Shown here: piece by piece, positions 9,625-54,948 of the stretch | Layout of the letters: every line of letters begins with the position of its first letter | How positions within the stretch are numbered: the stretch's first letter is position 1 | Sequence record: NC_004928.1 | Origin: Escherichia phage RB69 | DNA: 64,000 nt | Direction: 5' to 3' (one strand) | The notes under the pieces: generated by a model | The model's input: the letters and a program-made list of their open reading frames with translations, nothing else | Databases searched by the model: none | What the model was told of the DNA's origin: nothing | Position numbers and translations under genes: made by a program

Positions 9625-10938
9625 TCAAATAAAATGGACGTCAAAACGACCACGAGTTGTGCCGACATACAATAACTGTTTAGCTAATTCTGAATCAGCA
9701 TAATGGATACACGGTGTATAAACAAAGGCCGTGTCAACAGACATACCCTGGGCCTTATGGAAGGTTGATACTGGTAGTGCCTTCACCTTAGTGAACATAC
9801 GTTTAGCATCCCAGAATTCGCTCCATGGAGCTTTACCACCTTTATTCCAGAATTTGTATGTTTCTGCGGTCTTAGCCAAAAACAAATTGAATTTATAAAG
9901 CTCTTCTTCGGAAGAAATAACCTTTATATCCTCGCGGATGTATTCTTCATCATCCCCATATGTTTCTACTGTAAGATTCCAATATCGTATCATATACTCG
10001 CCCGAAACACCACGTGCTTTAACGAATGTAGACGTTTCTACAGCATCTCGAATACGAACGAATTGCCCGTTATTGAAAAGCATTTCGGTCATATTTTTAC
10101 CATCTAGCTTGTACGTCTTAGTAAATGGCTCTTGTAGAACAATGACTTCGTCTTTAATAAATGGTTTTTCTGTTTCAAGAAGTTTTCGGCGAATAATTGA
10201 ATTTAACTTGTCCACTGACTTATTTGTGAATGCCATCATCCGATTTTCGAAAAGGTCTTCAGGAGTTTTAACGACATTAAAATAATTCATCATATATGAT
10301 TTAAGGTCGGTATATCCATGAACACCATGCCCGTCAACTACTTTATCATAAATCCATTTGCCATTACGAATATCGGTCGCAACATCAATAATTGGTGCAT
10401 TGCTACGTTTAACTTCTGTAAGGTCGCATTGCACGAAGTCTTTGTGAGTGAAGAAAGGACTTAGATATGCAGTGGATTCGCCTGGGTCTACCGGTCGAAT
10501 CTGACATCGGTCGCCAATTCCAATTACTGTGCACCATTTAGGGATACTAGCTAACATTATTTTAAACAGAGAACGGTCGCACATTGACGCTTCATCAAAT
10601 AACAGTACACGACACAAGGCTAAGTCGGGAACCTTTTTCTGTTCAAACAATACGTTTTCTTCGTATGTAGTTGGGTTGATTTTAAGAATGCTATGAATAG
10701 TCGATGCTTCTTGACCAGCAAGTTTGCTTAGAACCTTTTTAGCGGCATGTGTTGGTGCTGCTAAAATAATACCTGATTCTCCAGAAGAAATAAGAGCTTC
10801 AACGATAAATCTAGTAAGGGTTGTTTTACCTGTACCGGCAGGCCCATTAATAGTTACGTGATGTTTCTTTTCTTTAATAGCTTTCATAACAACGTTGAAG
10901 GCGTTTTTCTGGCCTTCAGTCAAATCATCAAATGTCAT
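9625..10938 (-). CDS. dda: Dda DNA helicase (superfamily 1)
   Basis: 437 aa; Walker A GPAGTGKTT; near-colinear with the T4 Dda sequence as I recall it. Confidence 0.9.
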   Translation of the reverse strand: MTFDDLTEGQKNAFNVVMKAIKEKKHHVTINGPAGTGKTTLTRFIVEALISSGESGIILAAPTHAAKKVLSKLAGQEASTIHSILKINPTTYEENVLFEQKKVPDLALCRVLLFDEASMCDRSLFKIMLASIPKWCTVIGIGDRCQIRPVDPGESTAYLSPFFTHKDFVQCDLTEVKRSNAPIIDVATDIRNGKWIYDKVVDGHGVHGYTDLKSYMMNYFNVVKTPEDLFENRMMAFTNKSVDKLNSIIRRKLLETEKPFIKDEVIVLQEPFTKTYKLDGKNMTEMLFNNGQFVRIRDAVETSTFVKARGVSGEYMIRYWNLTVETYGDDEEYIREDIKVISSEEELYKFNLFLAKTAETYKFWNKGGKAPWSEFWDAKRMFTKVKALPVSTFHKAQGMSVDTAFVYTPCIHYADSELAKQLLYVGTTRGRFDVHFI

Positions 10939-11246
10939 CGTAAAGTCCCTGCAATTGGAATACTAACAATACGGCCTGTGTCCAGGATTCGTTGATACAA
11001 TCTTTGCGTCTCCGCATCTAGTTTAACGTGTTTCATTTCAAGCTTATTAAACCAGAACTTACGCGGAGTTTCGACCATTCTTAGAACTCCCATTTTTAAA
11101 TCTGTTTTATACTGTGTTTTCAAAGTATCGAAAACTTTATCTGCAATATCCTTTCTAAAAAATACTGCAGGACGATGCTCATCAAGAGGAACCGGGACAG
11201 TAAATCCTTCCATATCTCGATAAACTATTGCATATACATAAACCAT
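10935..11246 (-). CDS. hypothetical protein (dda.1 position)
   Basis: 103-aa ORF overlapping the dda start by 4 nt. Confidence 0.5.
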   Translation of the reverse strand: MVYVYAIVYRDMEGFTVPVPLDEHRPAVFFRKDIADKVFDTLKTQYKTDLKMGVLRMVETPRKFWFNKLEMKHVKLDAETQRLYQRILDTGRIVSIPIAGTLR

Positions 11247-11248
11247 AA

Positions 11249-11995
11249 TTAACCTTTAATCAGTTGGAATAATGATGCGCTAAGTGGTAAGCCACGTTTC
11301 AATTTTAATTTACCAATGAAACCAATCTTTTCAAAACGTTGCAGACCTTGGATAACTTTATCATATGTATCGAAAAGCGATTCAGCGTCAGTTAATTTAG
11401 TTTTAGTTTTCCAGTCAGAGCCTTTAAGAAGAACGTTGAGTTTAGTAAGTTCATGGCCTTCTGCTTGATGTGAGCCATTAATGCGTGCTTTCAAAGCAAC
11501 AATTCTAAGTTTAGATTCGTTAGATAAAGGTTGATTTTTCATCATGTTTGCCATATGCTTAACACGGTTTTCACGTTTTGCTCGGATTTTTAAAATAGTA
11601 CCATAAACCTTTTTAATTTGGGCCCATTTCTTCTCGTCGAGATTAAGTTTCTCTACTTTACGAGCAGAAGGATTAGCGATACGTCTTGCAATAGCATCAC
11701 GTTTCTCAATAAGTTCTTCTAATGTTAAATCAGAACGAGCCGTGTTATATTTTTTCTTAACTGGGATAACATTACCTTTAATGTAGCCTATATCATTATT
11801 AAAACGTTCTAAGGATAATTTCTCACCTTCAACAGAGTTATTGAAAGATTCACCTGAGTAAGCGCAGACCTTTTGATCAAGAATGTTTTTAAGGTAATTA
11901 AAGTCTAAGTTAAAATCCTTAGAGCGTCTCTTCGCAGAAGCTCTGGTGTGGTCAAGACGACGATTGATTTTGTTAATTTTATTATTTGATAACAT
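11249..11995 (-). CDS. srd: Srd-like protein (putative anti-sigma / sigma-mimic)
   Basis: 248-aa basic protein at the T4 srd position upstream of modA. Confidence 0.5.
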   Translation of the reverse strand: MLSNNKINKINRRLDHTRASAKRRSKDFNLDFNYLKNILDQKVCAYSGESFNNSVEGEKLSLERFNNDIGYIKGNVIPVKKKYNTARSDLTLEELIEKRDAIARRIANPSARKVEKLNLDEKKWAQIKKVYGTILKIRAKRENRVKHMANMMKNQPLSNESKLRIVALKARINGSHQAEGHELTKLNVLLKGSDWKTKTKLTDAESLFDTYDKVIQGLQRFEKIGFIGKLKLKRGLPLSASLFQLIKG

Positions 11996-12044
11996 AATAT
12001 TTTCCTCTGTCTTACGGACGTTAAGGTCATTTAGCTGATAAGTC

Positions 12045-12073
12045 TATAATATCATGCCCTCAGGTAGTGTACA
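12045..12073 (-). promoter_or_regulatory. early promoter (TGTACA, about 16 nt, TATTAT) upstream of srd
   Basis: minus strand GTGTACActacctgagggcatgaTATTATagac. Confidence 0.4.
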
Positions 12074-12086
12074 CTCTTTTTTCATA

Positions 12087-12115
12087 AAATGCTTTAATTT
12101 TTTATGTGTTATAAT
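12087..12115 (+). promoter_or_regulatory. plus-strand MotA-box promoter-like site (aaaTGCTTTA, 13 nt, TATAAT)
   Basis: perfect MotA box and -10 on the plus strand, pointing antisense into modA and modB. Confidence 0.35.
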
Positions 12116-12148
12116 GGTTCTGAGTTCCATCCGGTTATTCCAATTCAG

Positions 12149-12757
12149 TCAGTAACTGACAATAGACAGATTCCAGATTGTATAATGTCCATCTTGAATA
12201 ATAGAATCTACACGCAGTGTAGTCCCTATAGGGAGCATAAATTCACATTCGTCAGATATAAGTCTAGCGTTAGACCGTCTTGTCGCTTCAGGGAAAGCTC
12301 CATTGAACTCACAAGATGGCGCAGCCAGAATCATGTTAAGCATATGTTCACGGAAGTTGAAAGCAAATGGTGCATCTTTGATGCAGAACATATTAAATGT
12401 TCCGTAAAAATTATACGAAGCAAAGTTACGTGCTACACCGAACACTGGACTGAAGCTCATTACTCTGTCAAATTTAATAATACTACCAATGCCTTTATCA
12501 TCAAGTGTGGCCATAGTTTTCTTAGAGATTCCACGATACATTGTCTCAGGAACAGAAGACGACCAATTTCTACGAACAATTGCACTTAAATCTTGTTGGA
12601 TGCTATCAGGCTTGTTTTCCATACACTGCCATAGTACACTTTGTTCAATGTCACTGAATTGCTCATCGATTTTGTACTGAAGCATATCTTGATAATCCGG
12701 GCATTGAGCACGACGAACCATTTCTTCAATTTCACACTCGTTATACGGCATAAACAT
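12149..12757 (-). CDS. modA: ADP-ribosyltransferase ModA-like
   Basis: 202 aa; YRGI and SFS motifs; paralogous to the next ORF; T4 modA position. Confidence 0.6.
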   Translation of the reverse strand: MFMPYNECEIEEMVRRAQCPDYQDMLQYKIDEQFSDIEQSVLWQCMENKPDSIQQDLSAIVRRNWSSSVPETMYRGISKKTMATLDDKGIGSIIKFDRVMSFSPVFGVARNFASYNFYGTFNMFCIKDAPFAFNFREHMLNMILAAPSCEFNGAFPEATRRSNARLISDECEFMLPIGTTLRVDSIIQDGHYTIWNLSIVSY

Positions 12758-12814
12758 TTAGGTTTCTCCTATGGTTGATAAAGGTATAGTATCATCATCG
12801 GAAGAGTTTGTACA

Positions 12815-13396
12815 CTAAAAATTCAACATTTTCAAATGAATGATTTTGTATAATCTAGATAAAGGGTCATATTCTAAGTCTTCAATTTCCACAATCTCAA
12901 ATCTAGAGATACCTGAGACCATGTACTCTTGTTCAGATTCAATCATATCTAGGACATCAACACGTGTTTCTTCCATAACATGCTTAGGGTTCTTTCCGGC
13001 AAGTACAATGTTAATCATGTTTTGGTAGTAATCAAAAATGAATGGAGCATTCCTGAGACTAAGAATAGTGTACGTCTGATATTCCCATCTCCCGGAGAAT
13101 TGACGAGCTGTACTGAAATCAGTTGTGAACGATGTTACTCGTCCAGGAGACCAATGGCATCCAACAGAAAGAAGTGAAAGACGTTCTACTTCTTCTGGAG
13201 TTACACCACGGTAGAGTTCTACTGGTACTGTAGAAGTCATATGCTTACGAACAAGATGGTCTAATTCATAGTGGAAATCCGGGTCTTCCTTAGAATCGGT
13301 GCAAGCCCAGAGAATGTTTTGTTCTTGGCGGGTGAATTTGCTATCAATCAGATTTGTTAGGTATTCGCGTTCTTGAAGTTCAGATTGACATGTCAT
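12815..13396 (-). CDS. modB: ADP-ribosyltransferase ModB-like
   Basis: 193 aa; YRGV motif; paralogue of modA. Confidence 0.6.
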   Translation of the reverse strand: MTCQSELQEREYLTNLIDSKFTRQEQNILWACTDSKEDPDFHYELDHLVRKHMTSTVPVELYRGVTPEEVERLSLLSVGCHWSPGRVTSFTTDFSTARQFSGRWEYQTYTILSLRNAPFIFDYYQNMINIVLAGKNPKHVMEETRVDVLDMIESEQEYMVSGISRFEIVEIEDLEYDPLSRLYKIIHLKMLNF

Positions 13397-13423
13397 GATA
13401 GACCTCCATTTAAAGATAAGCCT

Positions 13424-13452
13424 ATCATAACATGAGAGGAGGGAATGTAAAC
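13424..13452 (-). promoter_or_regulatory. early promoter (GTTTAC, 17 nt, TATGAT) upstream of modB
   Basis: spacer cctcc is complementary to the downstream GGAGG site. Confidence 0.5.
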
Positions 13453-13612
13453 TACTTTTTAAGCTTTCCTACTAAAGGTCCATCAGGACCGGGTTGTTCT
13501 AACATGAATAAGGACGCTTTAAAAAGCAATGTCAACCCTTTCACCATTCGATACCATGTCTCAAAGTCTTTTTCCTTGATTTCCAGTAAGAATTTCTCTT
13601 TCAATTTCTCTT

Positions 13613-16258: not shown

Positions 16259-17277
16259 ATCTTCGAATAACGAGATAATCTCATTTTAGCATGCAACCCA
16301 CTTGAAATATTCTGTTTCATATATTCTAAAATTTCTTGTGGTGTTGCATTTTCTTTCATTACCATATCATTCACATCCTTTGAACTCCATGGAGCTCGGT
16401 CCCAGAACATGACACGTTCGCCTGCATCAACTAATCGCTTCATGCGAGCTATAGTATCCGGATGCCTAGGTTCATTATCCATTACCCATACCCGACGTTC
16501 TTTAAATGGTACCACATCTAAATCTATCGAGCCGCCTGTAATAGCGATTGCATTAGGTATGAATAAACTATCAATAGGGCCTTCCATTACCCAGACGTCT
16601 CCTTCCTTAACACGTTCAACACCATAAATTTTTGTTGCAGACTCAAACGCTTTAATAGTGATATATTTCTGAGGAGCATCTTTACGAAGTGCACGTCCTT
16701 GGAATGACTCGGCCTTCCCGTCTTTATTAAAAATAGGAATCACTAAACGTGGTTCGGGAATCTCTTTCTTATACGTACCAGGTTGAATCTTGTTGACCAA
16801 TTTGGGCCATTCTAATGTGAACCATAATCTGTTCCATGATTCTTTAGGAATACACCGAGACTTAACATATTTCACAATAGGATGCTCTTCAGGCAACTTG
16901 TCCAGACGAGAACAAGACGGCAAAGAATTTATAGTCTTTTTCTCTGGCTCTGGCTTAGCTTCAGGAACCTTTTCAATCTTTGGTTCCATTCTAGCTTTTT
17001 CTTTACGAACTTCCATTAGATATTCGCGATAAAGCTCTTCATCATACTCCTTTAAGTATCCGGAAATTGTATTGTGGTATTGACAGTTATAGCAATGTAC
17101 ATTACCAGGAGTACCGCCATAATACCAACCGCGAGCTTTCATTGCATCTGTCTGGGAGTCGCCACAAACTGGACAACGAAACGTTAATTTAAATGTGCTT
17201 GAATTATTGATTTGTCTAAAACGAGGGAGGTGAGAAAACGCACGATAAGCAAATTCATTATCTATCCATTCAGCCAT
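16255..17277 (-). CDS. 61: DNA primase gp61
   Basis: 340 aa; zinc ribbon CPVCGD...CYNC; matches T4 gp61. Confidence 0.9.
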   Translation of the reverse strand: MAEWIDNEFAYRAFSHLPRFRQINNSSTFKLTFRCPVCGDSQTDAMKARGWYYGGTPGNVHCYNCQYHNTISGYLKEYDEELYREYLMEVRKEKARMEPKIEKVPEAKPEPEKKTINSLPSCSRLDKLPEEHPIVKYVKSRCIPKESWNRLWFTLEWPKLVNKIQPGTYKKEIPEPRLVIPIFNKDGKAESFQGRALRKDAPQKYITIKAFESATKIYGVERVKEGDVWVMEGPIDSLFIPNAIAITGGSIDLDVVPFKERRVWVMDNEPRHPDTIARMKRLVDAGERVMFWDRAPWSSKDVNDMVMKENATPQEILEYMKQNISSGLHAKMRLSRYSKI

Positions 17278-43144: not shown

Positions 43145-43438
43145 TCAACTGTAACGATAACATTCGTTAGCTTTACGTTTGGCTTCAGTATGAGAAGTAT
43201 TATAATCATAATCTTCTTTACTGTAAACATCTTTTTTCAACTTACGAACTTCTTTGCGGAGTTGTCGATTCATTTCATTCTTGACTTCAGAATCAACGCC
43301 TTTCATACGTTTCCATTTATCTGAGCGGAAAATGTTTTCAACCATGTCTTTGTGGCTAACACCGTCAGGAGCTTTACGTTTACCAATGTAATAAAAATCT
43401 TTAGAAGACAAATCTTTACGACGATACGTTTTACCCAT
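43145..43438 (-). CDS. hypothetical basic protein
   Basis: ORF track 43145..43489; internal start Met18 assumed. Confidence 0.4.
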   Translation of the reverse strand: MGKTYRRKDLSSKDFYYIGKRKAPDGVSHKDMVENIFRSDKWKRMKGVDSEVKNEMNRQLRKEVRKLKKDVYSKEDYDYNTSHTEAKRKANECYRYS

Positions 43439-53023: not shown

Positions 53024-53085
53024 AACTATTTCCTCAGATTGAATTGGAACTCAAAACCATTATAACCCGTCCTTGGGTAAAGCGT

Positions 53086-53613
53086 TTATGCGTGAACCGT
53101 CTTTAAACGTTCTTCAAATTTCCGAAGAGTACTAATACGTTCTGCTTTCTGTTTTGTATAGTTTGCAATACGTTCTGAAGTGAGAGCGTATCGTTCGTTT
53201 ACTGTTTCTTTCATGAAGTCAGGGATTTCACGAGAATCTCCAATTTCATCAAACTTATCGAGTACTGCCTGGTCTTCAGCAATTAAATTTTCGTACATCT
53301 CGATATCTTTCTTAATAAACTCGATATCTTCCTGGGTTACTTTGGATAAACGAGATGCTTTATCCTTTTTGTGCTGTTCGTTAGTTTCACGAGACCAGAA
53401 TAATGTACGTTTTTTGTTAGTGTTTTTGTAGACTTCCACAATTCCAACTGAATCGATGATAACAATCCAATTCCAGCGAGATTTGAAAATCTGACCTCCG
53501 TCCACGGTAATCTCGTTACCATAAGCAACGTCATTAAAGAACTTGCTTTGTGCTTCAGATTTAAATTTACCGTCGTTATAATTTACCAGGTTGAAAATAT
53601 CTTTAGCGTTCAT
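53086..53613 (-). CDS. hypothetical protein
   Basis: 175-aa ORF. Confidence 0.5.
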   Translation of the reverse strand: MNAKDIFNLVNYNDGKFKSEAQSKFFNDVAYGNEITVDGGQIFKSRWNWIVIIDSVGIVEVYKNTNKKRTLFWSRETNEQHKKDKASRLSKVTQEDIEFIKKDIEMYENLIAEDQAVLDKFDEIGDSREIPDFMKETVNERYALTSERIANYTKQKAERISTLRKFEERLKTVHA

Positions 53614-53997: not shown

Positions 53998-54948
53998 TTA
54001 TCCAGTTGAAATAAAATCTGCTACATAAAGAGCCGTACGTAATGATACATTGCGAAGACGAGATACGTTAGCCTTCATCCAGGACAATGCTTTGTACGTT
54101 TCTGCATCCGTCAGGCCACGTTTCTGCATCATGTCAGTAGATAATATTACATCTTCAACTCTGACCATAATCTCTTCATTAGAGTGTACTCCAAGGTCCA
54201 AATACACTGAACGAGATACTAAAGCTTGAAGGTGTGGAGCAAGTTTCGAACCGCGTTCTAACTCTTTATCGATATCAACGTTTGTAATGAAAACGATAGT
54301 ACCTTCAAACTCAAATTCTTTATCGATACCCTTATCATCAAGATAAGATGATGCAGTGCTCCAGCAAACTTTGCGTTTATCACCAGTATCTAATGCGGCT
54401 TTAAGAAGGTTCAAGATATCCATATCTGAGAATACGTCAACGTCGTCGATTAAGAGAACACTGTCTGCATCACGGTTGAGCCAAAGTTGTTCGTAAAGGC
54501 CAATACCAGAGATTTTGCCATTAATGCTTTTGTATTTGATGAAACCATTATCATTAGCATTATTAAGCGCTTTATCCAGAGAATACGTCTTACCAATACC
54601 TGCTGCACCTGAAATAATGAGTGAACGAATTTTGCCATCAATAATGCCATTCGTCATCATGTTCATTACTTTAAAGCGTTTGTTGATACGAGTTTTCATA
54701 TCTTCAGCGCTTTCAACAACTGCAACTGGTGATGTCTCAACTCCTTCCATTACGATGTCTGATTTGAAGACCCATACTCCACGTTCAGAACCATCAATCA
54801 TACCGAAAATTTTACCGTCACCTAAGTGGGAACATTCAGGATTAAGCTTTGCCGGGAACCATGTCTTTGTGGCAACATAAGAACCAGAGATTTCGTTATT
54901 ACGATAGATACCTTTTTTGATTTGAACGTTGAACATTTTATTCTCCAA
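53998..54948 (-). CDS. P-loop ATPase (AAA-like)
   Basis: 316 aa; Walker A SGAAGIGKT and Walker B VLLIDDVD. Confidence 0.55.
   Translation of the reverse strand: MENKMFNVQIKKGIYRNNEISGSYVATKTWFPAKLNPECSHLGDGKIFGMIDGSERGVWVFKSDIVMEGVETSPVAVVESAEDMKTRINKRFKVMNMMTNGIIDGKIRSLIISGAAGIGKTYSLDKALNNANDNGFIKYKSINGKISGIGLYEQLWLNRDADSVLLIDDVDVFSDMDILNLLKAALDTGDKRKVCWSTASSYLDDKGIDKEFEFEGTIVFITNVDIDKELERGSKLAPHLQALVSRSVYLDLGVHSNEEIMVRVEDVILSTDMMQKRGLTDAETYKALSWMKANVSRLRNVSLRTALYVADFISTG

Follow-up and report, generated by a model that had tools for sequence, protein, structure and literature searches.

A stretch of 64,000 nt from the genome of Escherichia phage RB69 (record NC_004928.1; referred to here as the window) contains the srd gene and, next to it, a gene for an ADP-ribosyltransferase, both on the minus strand. 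The 153 nt gap between them, from the start of srd (11995) to the stop codon of the enzyme gene (12149-12151), holds a plus-strand sequence with the form of a middle promoter activated by MotA and AsiA, which faces backwards into the enzyme gene. The features of the locus are listed below in window coordinates; genes are given as open reading frames (ORFs), and the elements of the plus-strand promoter were read directly from the sequence, apart from the transcript start.

9625-10938, minus strand: dda (ORF)
10935-11246, minus strand: dda.1 (ORF)
11249-11995, minus strand: srd (ORF; product 68% identical to T4 Srd)
12046-12073, minus strand: early-type sigma-70 promoter of srd (TGTACA, 16 nt, TGaTATTAT), divergent from the plus-strand promoter
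12087-12096, plus strand: MotA box (-30 element), aaaTGCTTTA
12097-12109, plus strand: spacer of 13 nt, ending in TGT (12107-12109), a TGn extended -10 motif
12110-12115, plus strand: sigma-70 -10 hexamer TATAAT, followed by G (12116)
12122-12123, plus strand: predicted transcript start, G12122 or A12123, placed at the usual 6-7 nt after the -10 hexamer
12104-12589, plus strand: 161-aa ORF lying antisense to the enzyme gene and rejected as a gene, with an ATG upstream of the transcript start predicted here
12149-12757, minus strand: srd-proximal ADP-ribosyltransferase gene ('modA' by position; ORF), the first gene that an antisense transcript would cross
12815-13396, minus strand: second ADP-ribosyltransferase gene ('modB'; ORF), crossed only by a transcript longer than 700 nt

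An earlier sequence-only reading of this DNA had placed all nearby genes on the minus strand, and this was confirmed: in the 98% identical phage PhAPEC2, the nearest annotated plus-strand coding sequence is about 3.7 kb downstream. The 2.3 kb stretch around the promoter is 96-99% identical to PhAPEC2, JS09, ST0 and many other phages, and in relatives with 97-99% identity the srd-proximal gene is annotated as an RNA polymerase ADP-ribosylase. The name modA, used in that reading, suits the gene by position but not by product, which is closer to T4 ModB (109 bits by blastp) than to T4 ModA (72 bits). Of these two T4 proteins, the product of the second gene (12815-13396) matches ModB only. The two enzyme genes are 57 nt apart in the window, with an early-type promoter between them, and the T4 modA and modB genes overlap. 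No terminator separates the enzyme gene from srd, and the early promoter of srd has a T4 counterpart at the equivalent place (GTTTAC...TATAGT).

The perfect MotA box and the TATAAT hexamer 13 nt further on, which the same reading had reported for the plus strand of the srd-modA gap, are present at 12087-12096 and 12110-12115. The published consensus for T4 middle promoters, which work by sigma appropriation and of which 58 have been mapped, is (a/t)(a/t)(a/t)TGCTTtA, a spacing of 12 ± 1 bp and TAtaaT, with TGn in about half of them (PMC2988021). The RB69 site agrees with this consensus at every position, and its 13 nt spacing falls within the permitted range. A scan for sigma-70 -35/-10 pairs gave no plus-strand promoter at the site, i.e., no -35 hexamer replaces the MotA box. 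Some MotA-independent activity of the promoter is possible because TGn-TATAAT is present. Transcription is predicted to start 26-27 nt away from the enzyme gene's stop codon. Scanning both strands showed that the site is the sole instance of TGCTTTA-N11-13-TATAAT in the 64 kb, where 0.033 would be expected by chance (both strands together, 300 first-order Markov simulations); at least one instance occurred in 2.7% of the simulations. The only other plus-strand match to the shorter pattern GCTTnn-N11-13-TATAAT in the window is at 43178-43206 (TTTGGCTTCA...TATAAT).

The site has been predicted before by a computer scan of RB69. Nolan, Petrov & Karam (2006) list the identical site in their Additional file 4 as Pm:12081 (plus strand, 12081-12122, '1 bp ins', score 7.9), one of 32 RB69 profile-scan hits in a supplementary table. 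The text of the paper is silent on it, and the entry is a profile-scan hit only, with no cross-phage comparison. Published RB69 promoter coordinates agree with the positions of motif hits in the window. The T4 counterpart, referred to here as as-modA, lies on the plus strand of the same gap, and consists of aaaTGCTTTA, 12 nt, and TATAAT at 11,885-11,890, with a predicted start at about 11,897. This T4 copy is unmapped, and the mapped T4 middle promoters include none between Pdda.1 (11,138) and P56/69 (16,813). The GenBank and RefSeq records of T4 carry no promoter features at the srd-modA gap, and no description of an antisense RNA to modA was found in the literature searched. A 2024-26 preprint reports 150 start sites in T4 by differential RNA sequencing, 22 of them antisense, and places the T4 dda.1 and srd mRNAs (11.0-11.8 kb) among the most abundant phage RNAs capped with nicotinamide adenine dinucleotide.

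The spacers between srd and the enzyme gene from 13 phages, including Phi1, were aligned in the orientation of the window plus strand. The mean column identity of this alignment was 32%, and most of the gap could not be aligned, yet near-invariant columns were found within the spacer at GCTTT (12091-12095), TATAATG (12110-12116) and a single T (12119); the only other near-invariant columns were those of the srd start and its ribosome-binding site. GCTTT was at least 90% conserved, the sole exception being Phi1, which lacks the promoter. The pattern GCTTT-N(12-13)-TATAATG was present in all 14 distinct promoter sequences compared, which come from at least nine named genera of the Tevenvirinae. 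The promoter-bearing phages are RB69 (Mosigvirus), T4 (Tequatrovirus), VR5 and Bp7 (Dhakavirus), VR7 (Gaprivervirus), Yersinia phage P8 (YenP8), NP4 (Gelderlandvirus), Vettismorki (Winklervirus), EnC07 (Karamvirus), Klebsiella phage KP21072, KP185 and JD18 (Jiaodavirus), and, by a separate check, phiR1-RT (Tegunavirus).

When IMG/VR was scanned with a ModA alignment, 25 loci with a gene for a ModA relative were obtained. Every one of them (25/25) carries exactly one such site on the antisense strand, with the core GCTT plus TATAAT. In these loci, as in the 14 sequences above, the site is directed into the enzyme gene, and its distance beyond the stop codon, measured for the loci at the -10 hexamer, is 12-46 nt. 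Across the alignment and these loci, the distance from box to hexamer is always 12 or 13 nt, and the spacer itself takes at least 10 different sequences. Constant blocks at a constant distance, joined by a freely varying spacer, are the signature of a promoter and not what a structured RNA or a coding sequence would show. Partial conservation across lineages is also seen in the first 10-15 transcribed bases (A-A/G-G-G/T-pyrimidine-rich). Exact copies of the -10 and start region of the window were found in IMG/VR at the same locus only.

The arrangement of the surrounding sequences varies between lineages. In NP4, Vettismorki, EnC07, KP185 and JD18 the gap is 80-90 nt long and the early promoter of srd is absent; the plus-strand promoter is retained, with little else. 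KP21072 and L034 carry an inserted dmd that separates the enzyme gene from srd; here the promoter remains beside the enzyme gene. A role for the conserved block as a minus-strand element was considered and rejected, as its reverse complement contains no sigma-70 or late promoter and lineages lacking the srd early promoter still have the block.

Phi1 (Krischvirus) is the one sampled relative without the element, so that its absence rests on a single lineage. At the same place on the antisense strand (2502-2562 of the Phi1 locus, L013) there is a degenerate version, tCCTTag, 12 nt and TATTAT, which may be a relic or a chance match. RB49, which is close to Phi1, has no MotA and no middle-promoter consensus, and RB69 has a motA orthologue (PMC1524935). 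MotA is encoded in the other groups sampled, including EnC07 itself and Mosigvirus JS09, and the MotA proteins of the Mosigvirus relatives JS09, mobillu and LF82-4 are about 50% identical to that of T4 by tblastn. The motA gene of T4 is near 163 kb, outside the stretch that corresponds to the window. As it is kept in every MotA-encoding relative of T4 examined, the sequence at 12087-12115 is almost certainly a functional promoter, and its conservation across genera shows that it is under selection.

The predicted promoter has no gene to serve, since it faces the 3' end of an opposite-strand gene; in this it is unlike the mapped T4 middle promoters, and its T4 orthologue is absent from their list. 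The 161-aa ORF at 12104-12589 had been described as lying wholly within modA on the other strand and as probably not real. The first statement was incorrect, as the ORF begins in the intergenic gap, and the second was borne out. It was rejected as a gene because the predicted transcript would start downstream of its ATG and because it has no counterpart in T4, VR5 or EnC07, none of which has an antisense ORF of at least 60 aa at the equivalent place. In the annotated, near-identical PhAPEC2 there is no other plus-strand coding target within 3.7 kb, and the next coding sequence is beyond an annotated terminator. No Rfam match was found at E <= 1 over 11500-13600, and the predicted fold of +1..+139 is ordinary (z = -1.08), giving no sign of a structured 5' RNA. 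With no plus-strand gene, no Rfam match and an ordinary fold, the product is a predicted non-coding transcript running backwards into the enzyme gene. Several lineages have C-rich, G-poor stretches at +100..+200, a hint of termination by Rho that is confounded by coding constraint. No conserved intrinsic terminator that would define the extent of the antisense RNA was present on that strand within 2 kb in 10 lineages.

We infer from the sequence the activity of this promoter, its dependence on MotA, the length of its RNA and its effect on the enzyme genes. The favoured reading, a tentative one that falls a little short of probable, is that a MotA/AsiA-driven antisense or convergent transcript turns off one or both of the early enzyme genes, as the sequence-only reading had proposed. 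Early promoters upstream of modB and modA would first produce minus-strand enzyme mRNA, with read-through into srd. Once MotA and AsiA had re-programmed the sigma-70 polymerase, the convergent plus-strand promoter would be switched on, with transcription from about 12122-12123, and expression of the toxic early enzyme would then be lowered. Polymerases meeting head-on could bring this about (transcriptional interference), as could base pairing between the antisense RNA and the 3' part of the mRNA with subsequent nuclease attack, or the two together. ModA is highly toxic when synthesised, the shut-off of early expression has been described as unexplained, and deletion of modA or asiA fails to prevent that shut-off (PMC2988021). 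ModA is required for a short time only. The tight and conserved coupling of the promoter to the 3' end of the enzyme gene, the toxicity of ModA and the question of early shut-off all fit this reading. By position, the predicted transcript would overlap its target in the manner of a cis-antisense RNA, with a promoter located just past the enzyme gene's 3' end and on the opposite strand.

Several observations weigh against such a timed shut-off. A discrete cis-antisense RNA of the lambda OOP type would have a terminator of its own, but no terminator-like site was found on the plus strand between 12123 and 13396, which spans both enzyme genes, and the comparison of 10 lineages over 2 kb likewise gave no conserved intrinsic one. 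In T4, a comparison of wild type and a motA amber mutant at 5 min (stranded library, counting mode unstated) gave a 0.88-fold value for modA and a 1.11-fold value for modB, neither of them significant; goF, cef and motB rose about 2-fold in the same comparison. These counts are mild evidence against any strong lowering of modA mRNA through MotA. The T4 copy at about 11,897 is missing from the table of 58 experimentally mapped middle promoters, and its -14..+11 region is nearly that of PuvsY, pointing to another class of role. T4 also has a twin plus-strand promoter that aims into late gene 2, a gene that needs no early shut-off. Shut-off is thus one of at least two live readings, since modA and modB are unchanged in the motA amber mutant and the promoter falls within a small subclass that includes the two R-loop origin promoters of T4.

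That subclass is defined by the sequence around the start site. The start region of the window site, GGTTCTG followed by AGTTCCATCC, resembles that of T4 PuvsY, GAATCT followed by AAGTCCATCC, and GAGTTCC is common to the site and P34i. The start regions, each given as two consecutive parts, are:

T4 PuvsY: GGTATAATGAATCT followed by AAGTCCATCCA
T4 site behind modA: GGTATAATGAATCT followed by AAGTCCTTCCA (24 of 25 positions identical to PuvsY)
Window site: TATAATGGTTCTG followed by AGTTCCATCC
T4 P34i: TATAATGGTCCC followed by AGAGAGTTCC

Among the 58 mapped middle promoters of T4, only PuvsY, P34i and PnrdC.7 have the downstream motif, and on this comparison the promoter belongs to a small subclass that includes both known R-loop origin promoters, PuvsY at oriF and P34i at oriG. 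An origin function is therefore a serious rival explanation, in which a MotA-dependent RNA would stay hybridised to the template immediately downstream and prime rightward leading-strand synthesis, the antisense run being incidental. According to the T4 record, the primer at oriF is the uvsY transcript that starts from PuvsY, and the near-identity of as-modA from -14 to +11 is to this primer promoter. PuvsY promoters of other genera also carry the downstream motif. At oriG, the primer RNA from the MotA promoter P34i runs opposite to gene 34, in which it lies (T4 record annotation), an orientation shared with the promoter behind modA; PuvsY, unlike the latter, has a gene to serve as well (uvsY). 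A+T makes up 72% of the initial 100 nt of the as-modA transcript, compared with 70% at oriF.

Origins oriF and oriG require an A+T-rich unwinding element (PMC3016281), however, and none is evident in the window, where A+T over +1..+100 is 63% and the genome mean is 62.8%, or in most lineages. With oriG at 66%, ten lineages ranging over 60-73% for the first 100 nt (60-68% in those other than RB69 and T4) and over 54-64% for the next 100, simple A+T content fails to separate the known origins from the site behind modA. No origin has been mapped at 11.9 kb in T4: the T4 record places oriA at 16,763, oriE at 79,355, oriF at 115,321 and oriG at 152,947, and a whole-genome array study reported origins A, C, E, F and G (PMC3016281); a weak or unresolved origin may nevertheless lie there. 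That the site could be oriA was rejected: oriA is at 16,763, its firing is leftward and P56/69 supplies its primer. PnrdC.7 shares the motif yet is no known origin, so that the motif may mark only a subclass of strong promoters. An origin would also leave unexplained the tight coupling of the promoter to the stop codon of the enzyme gene, which persists after insertion of dmd. Overall, an origin-type promoter is unlikely as the explanation, and it is compatible with shut-off, as neither function precludes the other.

The orthologue of PnrdC.7 in the window is at 53059-53087 on the minus strand (AAACGCTTTA, 13 nt, TATAATGGTTTTGAGTTCC), and its -10 and start region matches the promoter behind modA at 19 of 23 positions; the start region of PnrdC.7 in T4 is TATAATGGTTCT followed by AAGCCC. 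Promoters of the subclass appear more alike within a genome than do orthologues between genomes, which hints at concerted change or a shared recognition factor.

An active promoter might instead have another role, either blocking early read-through into srd, dda.1 and dda, or producing an RNA that acts in trans; we regard this as improbable. The lack of a terminator between the enzyme gene and srd would suit a block to read-through, and dda.1 and dda are MotA-dependent through a middle promoter of their own (Pdda.1 in T4, Pm:11387 in RB69), being expressed at 0.23- and 0.30-fold in the T4 motA amber mutant. However, srd rose only 1.5-fold in that mutant, and where dmd has been inserted the promoter keeps with the enzyme gene, not with srd. 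The partial conservation of the first transcribed bases is a further point for another role, although the predicted RNA belongs to no Rfam family and its fold is unexceptional. A chance match or a neutral cryptic promoter without selected function is very improbable, for although AT-rich genomes yield -10-like hexamers, the window has 24 plus-strand TGCTTTA heptamers, the 2006 profile score was low and the site is missing from the experimental T4 list, only 0.033 instances are expected per window, GCTTT and TATAATG hold their spacing and position in 14 of 14 sequences despite change-saturated flanks, and the GCTT plus TATAAT core recurs in all 25 metagenomic and genomic loci.

Two promoters of phage lambda offer parallels to the antisense transcript proposed here. 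The lambda OOP RNA is a 77 nt antisense RNA, transcribed from a promoter just downstream of cII, that overlaps the 3' end of cII mRNA and causes its RNase III-dependent decay. The two share a promoter placed directly 3' of the target and on the opposite strand, and in each the 3' end of an early gene, regulatory or toxic, is overlapped by the transcript, which for RB69 is a predicted one. OOP differs in having its own terminator, a defined short length and no temporal-class activator, whereas the RB69 promoter is of the middle class and no terminator was found for it. Lambda P_RE is an activator-dependent promoter that lacks a -35 element and transcribes backwards through cro, and the RB69 site would similarly be an activator-type promoter without a -35 consensus, directed at an early gene with set timing. 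P_RE drives a gene downstream of it as well (cI); no plus-strand gene follows the RB69 site within 3.7 kb.

This promoter is present in every sampled MotA-encoding lineage of the Tevenvirinae that has an ADP-ribosyltransferase gene adjacent to srd, and backward transcription from it is perhaps, though not yet probably, a timed kill-switch for the toxic early enzyme or enzymes. If so, the change from early to middle expression in T4-type phages would include a conserved antisense layer that 40 years of T4 promoter mapping had missed. Alternatively, if as-modA, PuvsY, P34i and PnrdC.7 mark R-loop-forming promoters, the site would be an unrecognised, conserved rightward start of replication. The start region common to a small promoter subclass and the two R-loop origins bears on how T4 origins are defined. 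The end of early expression in T4-type phages is still called unresolved (PMC2988021), and the promoter offers a hypothesis that can be tested by a single mutation, in T4 itself; motA amber mutants and public data sets (GSE255091, GSE111808) exist. The catalogue of T4 middle promoters misses at least two perfect-consensus sites facing the 'wrong' way, at 11.9 kb and 76.0 kb.

The second of these unlisted perfect MotA promoters is in the gap between genes 3 and 2 of T4 (AF158101, 75,958-75,993, plus strand) and consists of TAATGCTTTA, 13 nt and TATAATGGGTCTAAGTCCCTTCC. It aims backwards into late gene 2 and differs from the modA-side promoter by 4 mismatches in 22 nt. It was found in three of three T4-type IMG/VR loci, and 11 more distant gp2 loci had no TATAAT-type counterpart (one has a weaker TACAAT). 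The other plus-strand middle promoter predicted in the early region of RB69, Pm:54516 (window 54516-54555, score 7.5), is inside a gene, has a weak -10 hexamer (TATCAT) and looks like a chance hit.

In Acinetobacter phage Melin, a look-alike promoter (TTGCTTTA, 14 nt, TGtTATAATggttcta) lies on the minus strand upstream of an srd-like gene that has no ADP-ribosyltransferase neighbour (2073-2240 of its locus, L043). The next 135 nt or so are non-coding and close with a strong bidirectional hairpin terminator (fold z = -2.3, no Rfam family). Some 50 Acinetobacter phages each match the 291 nt stretch at 5 places, which makes it a repeated intergenic cassette and possibly a small RNA.
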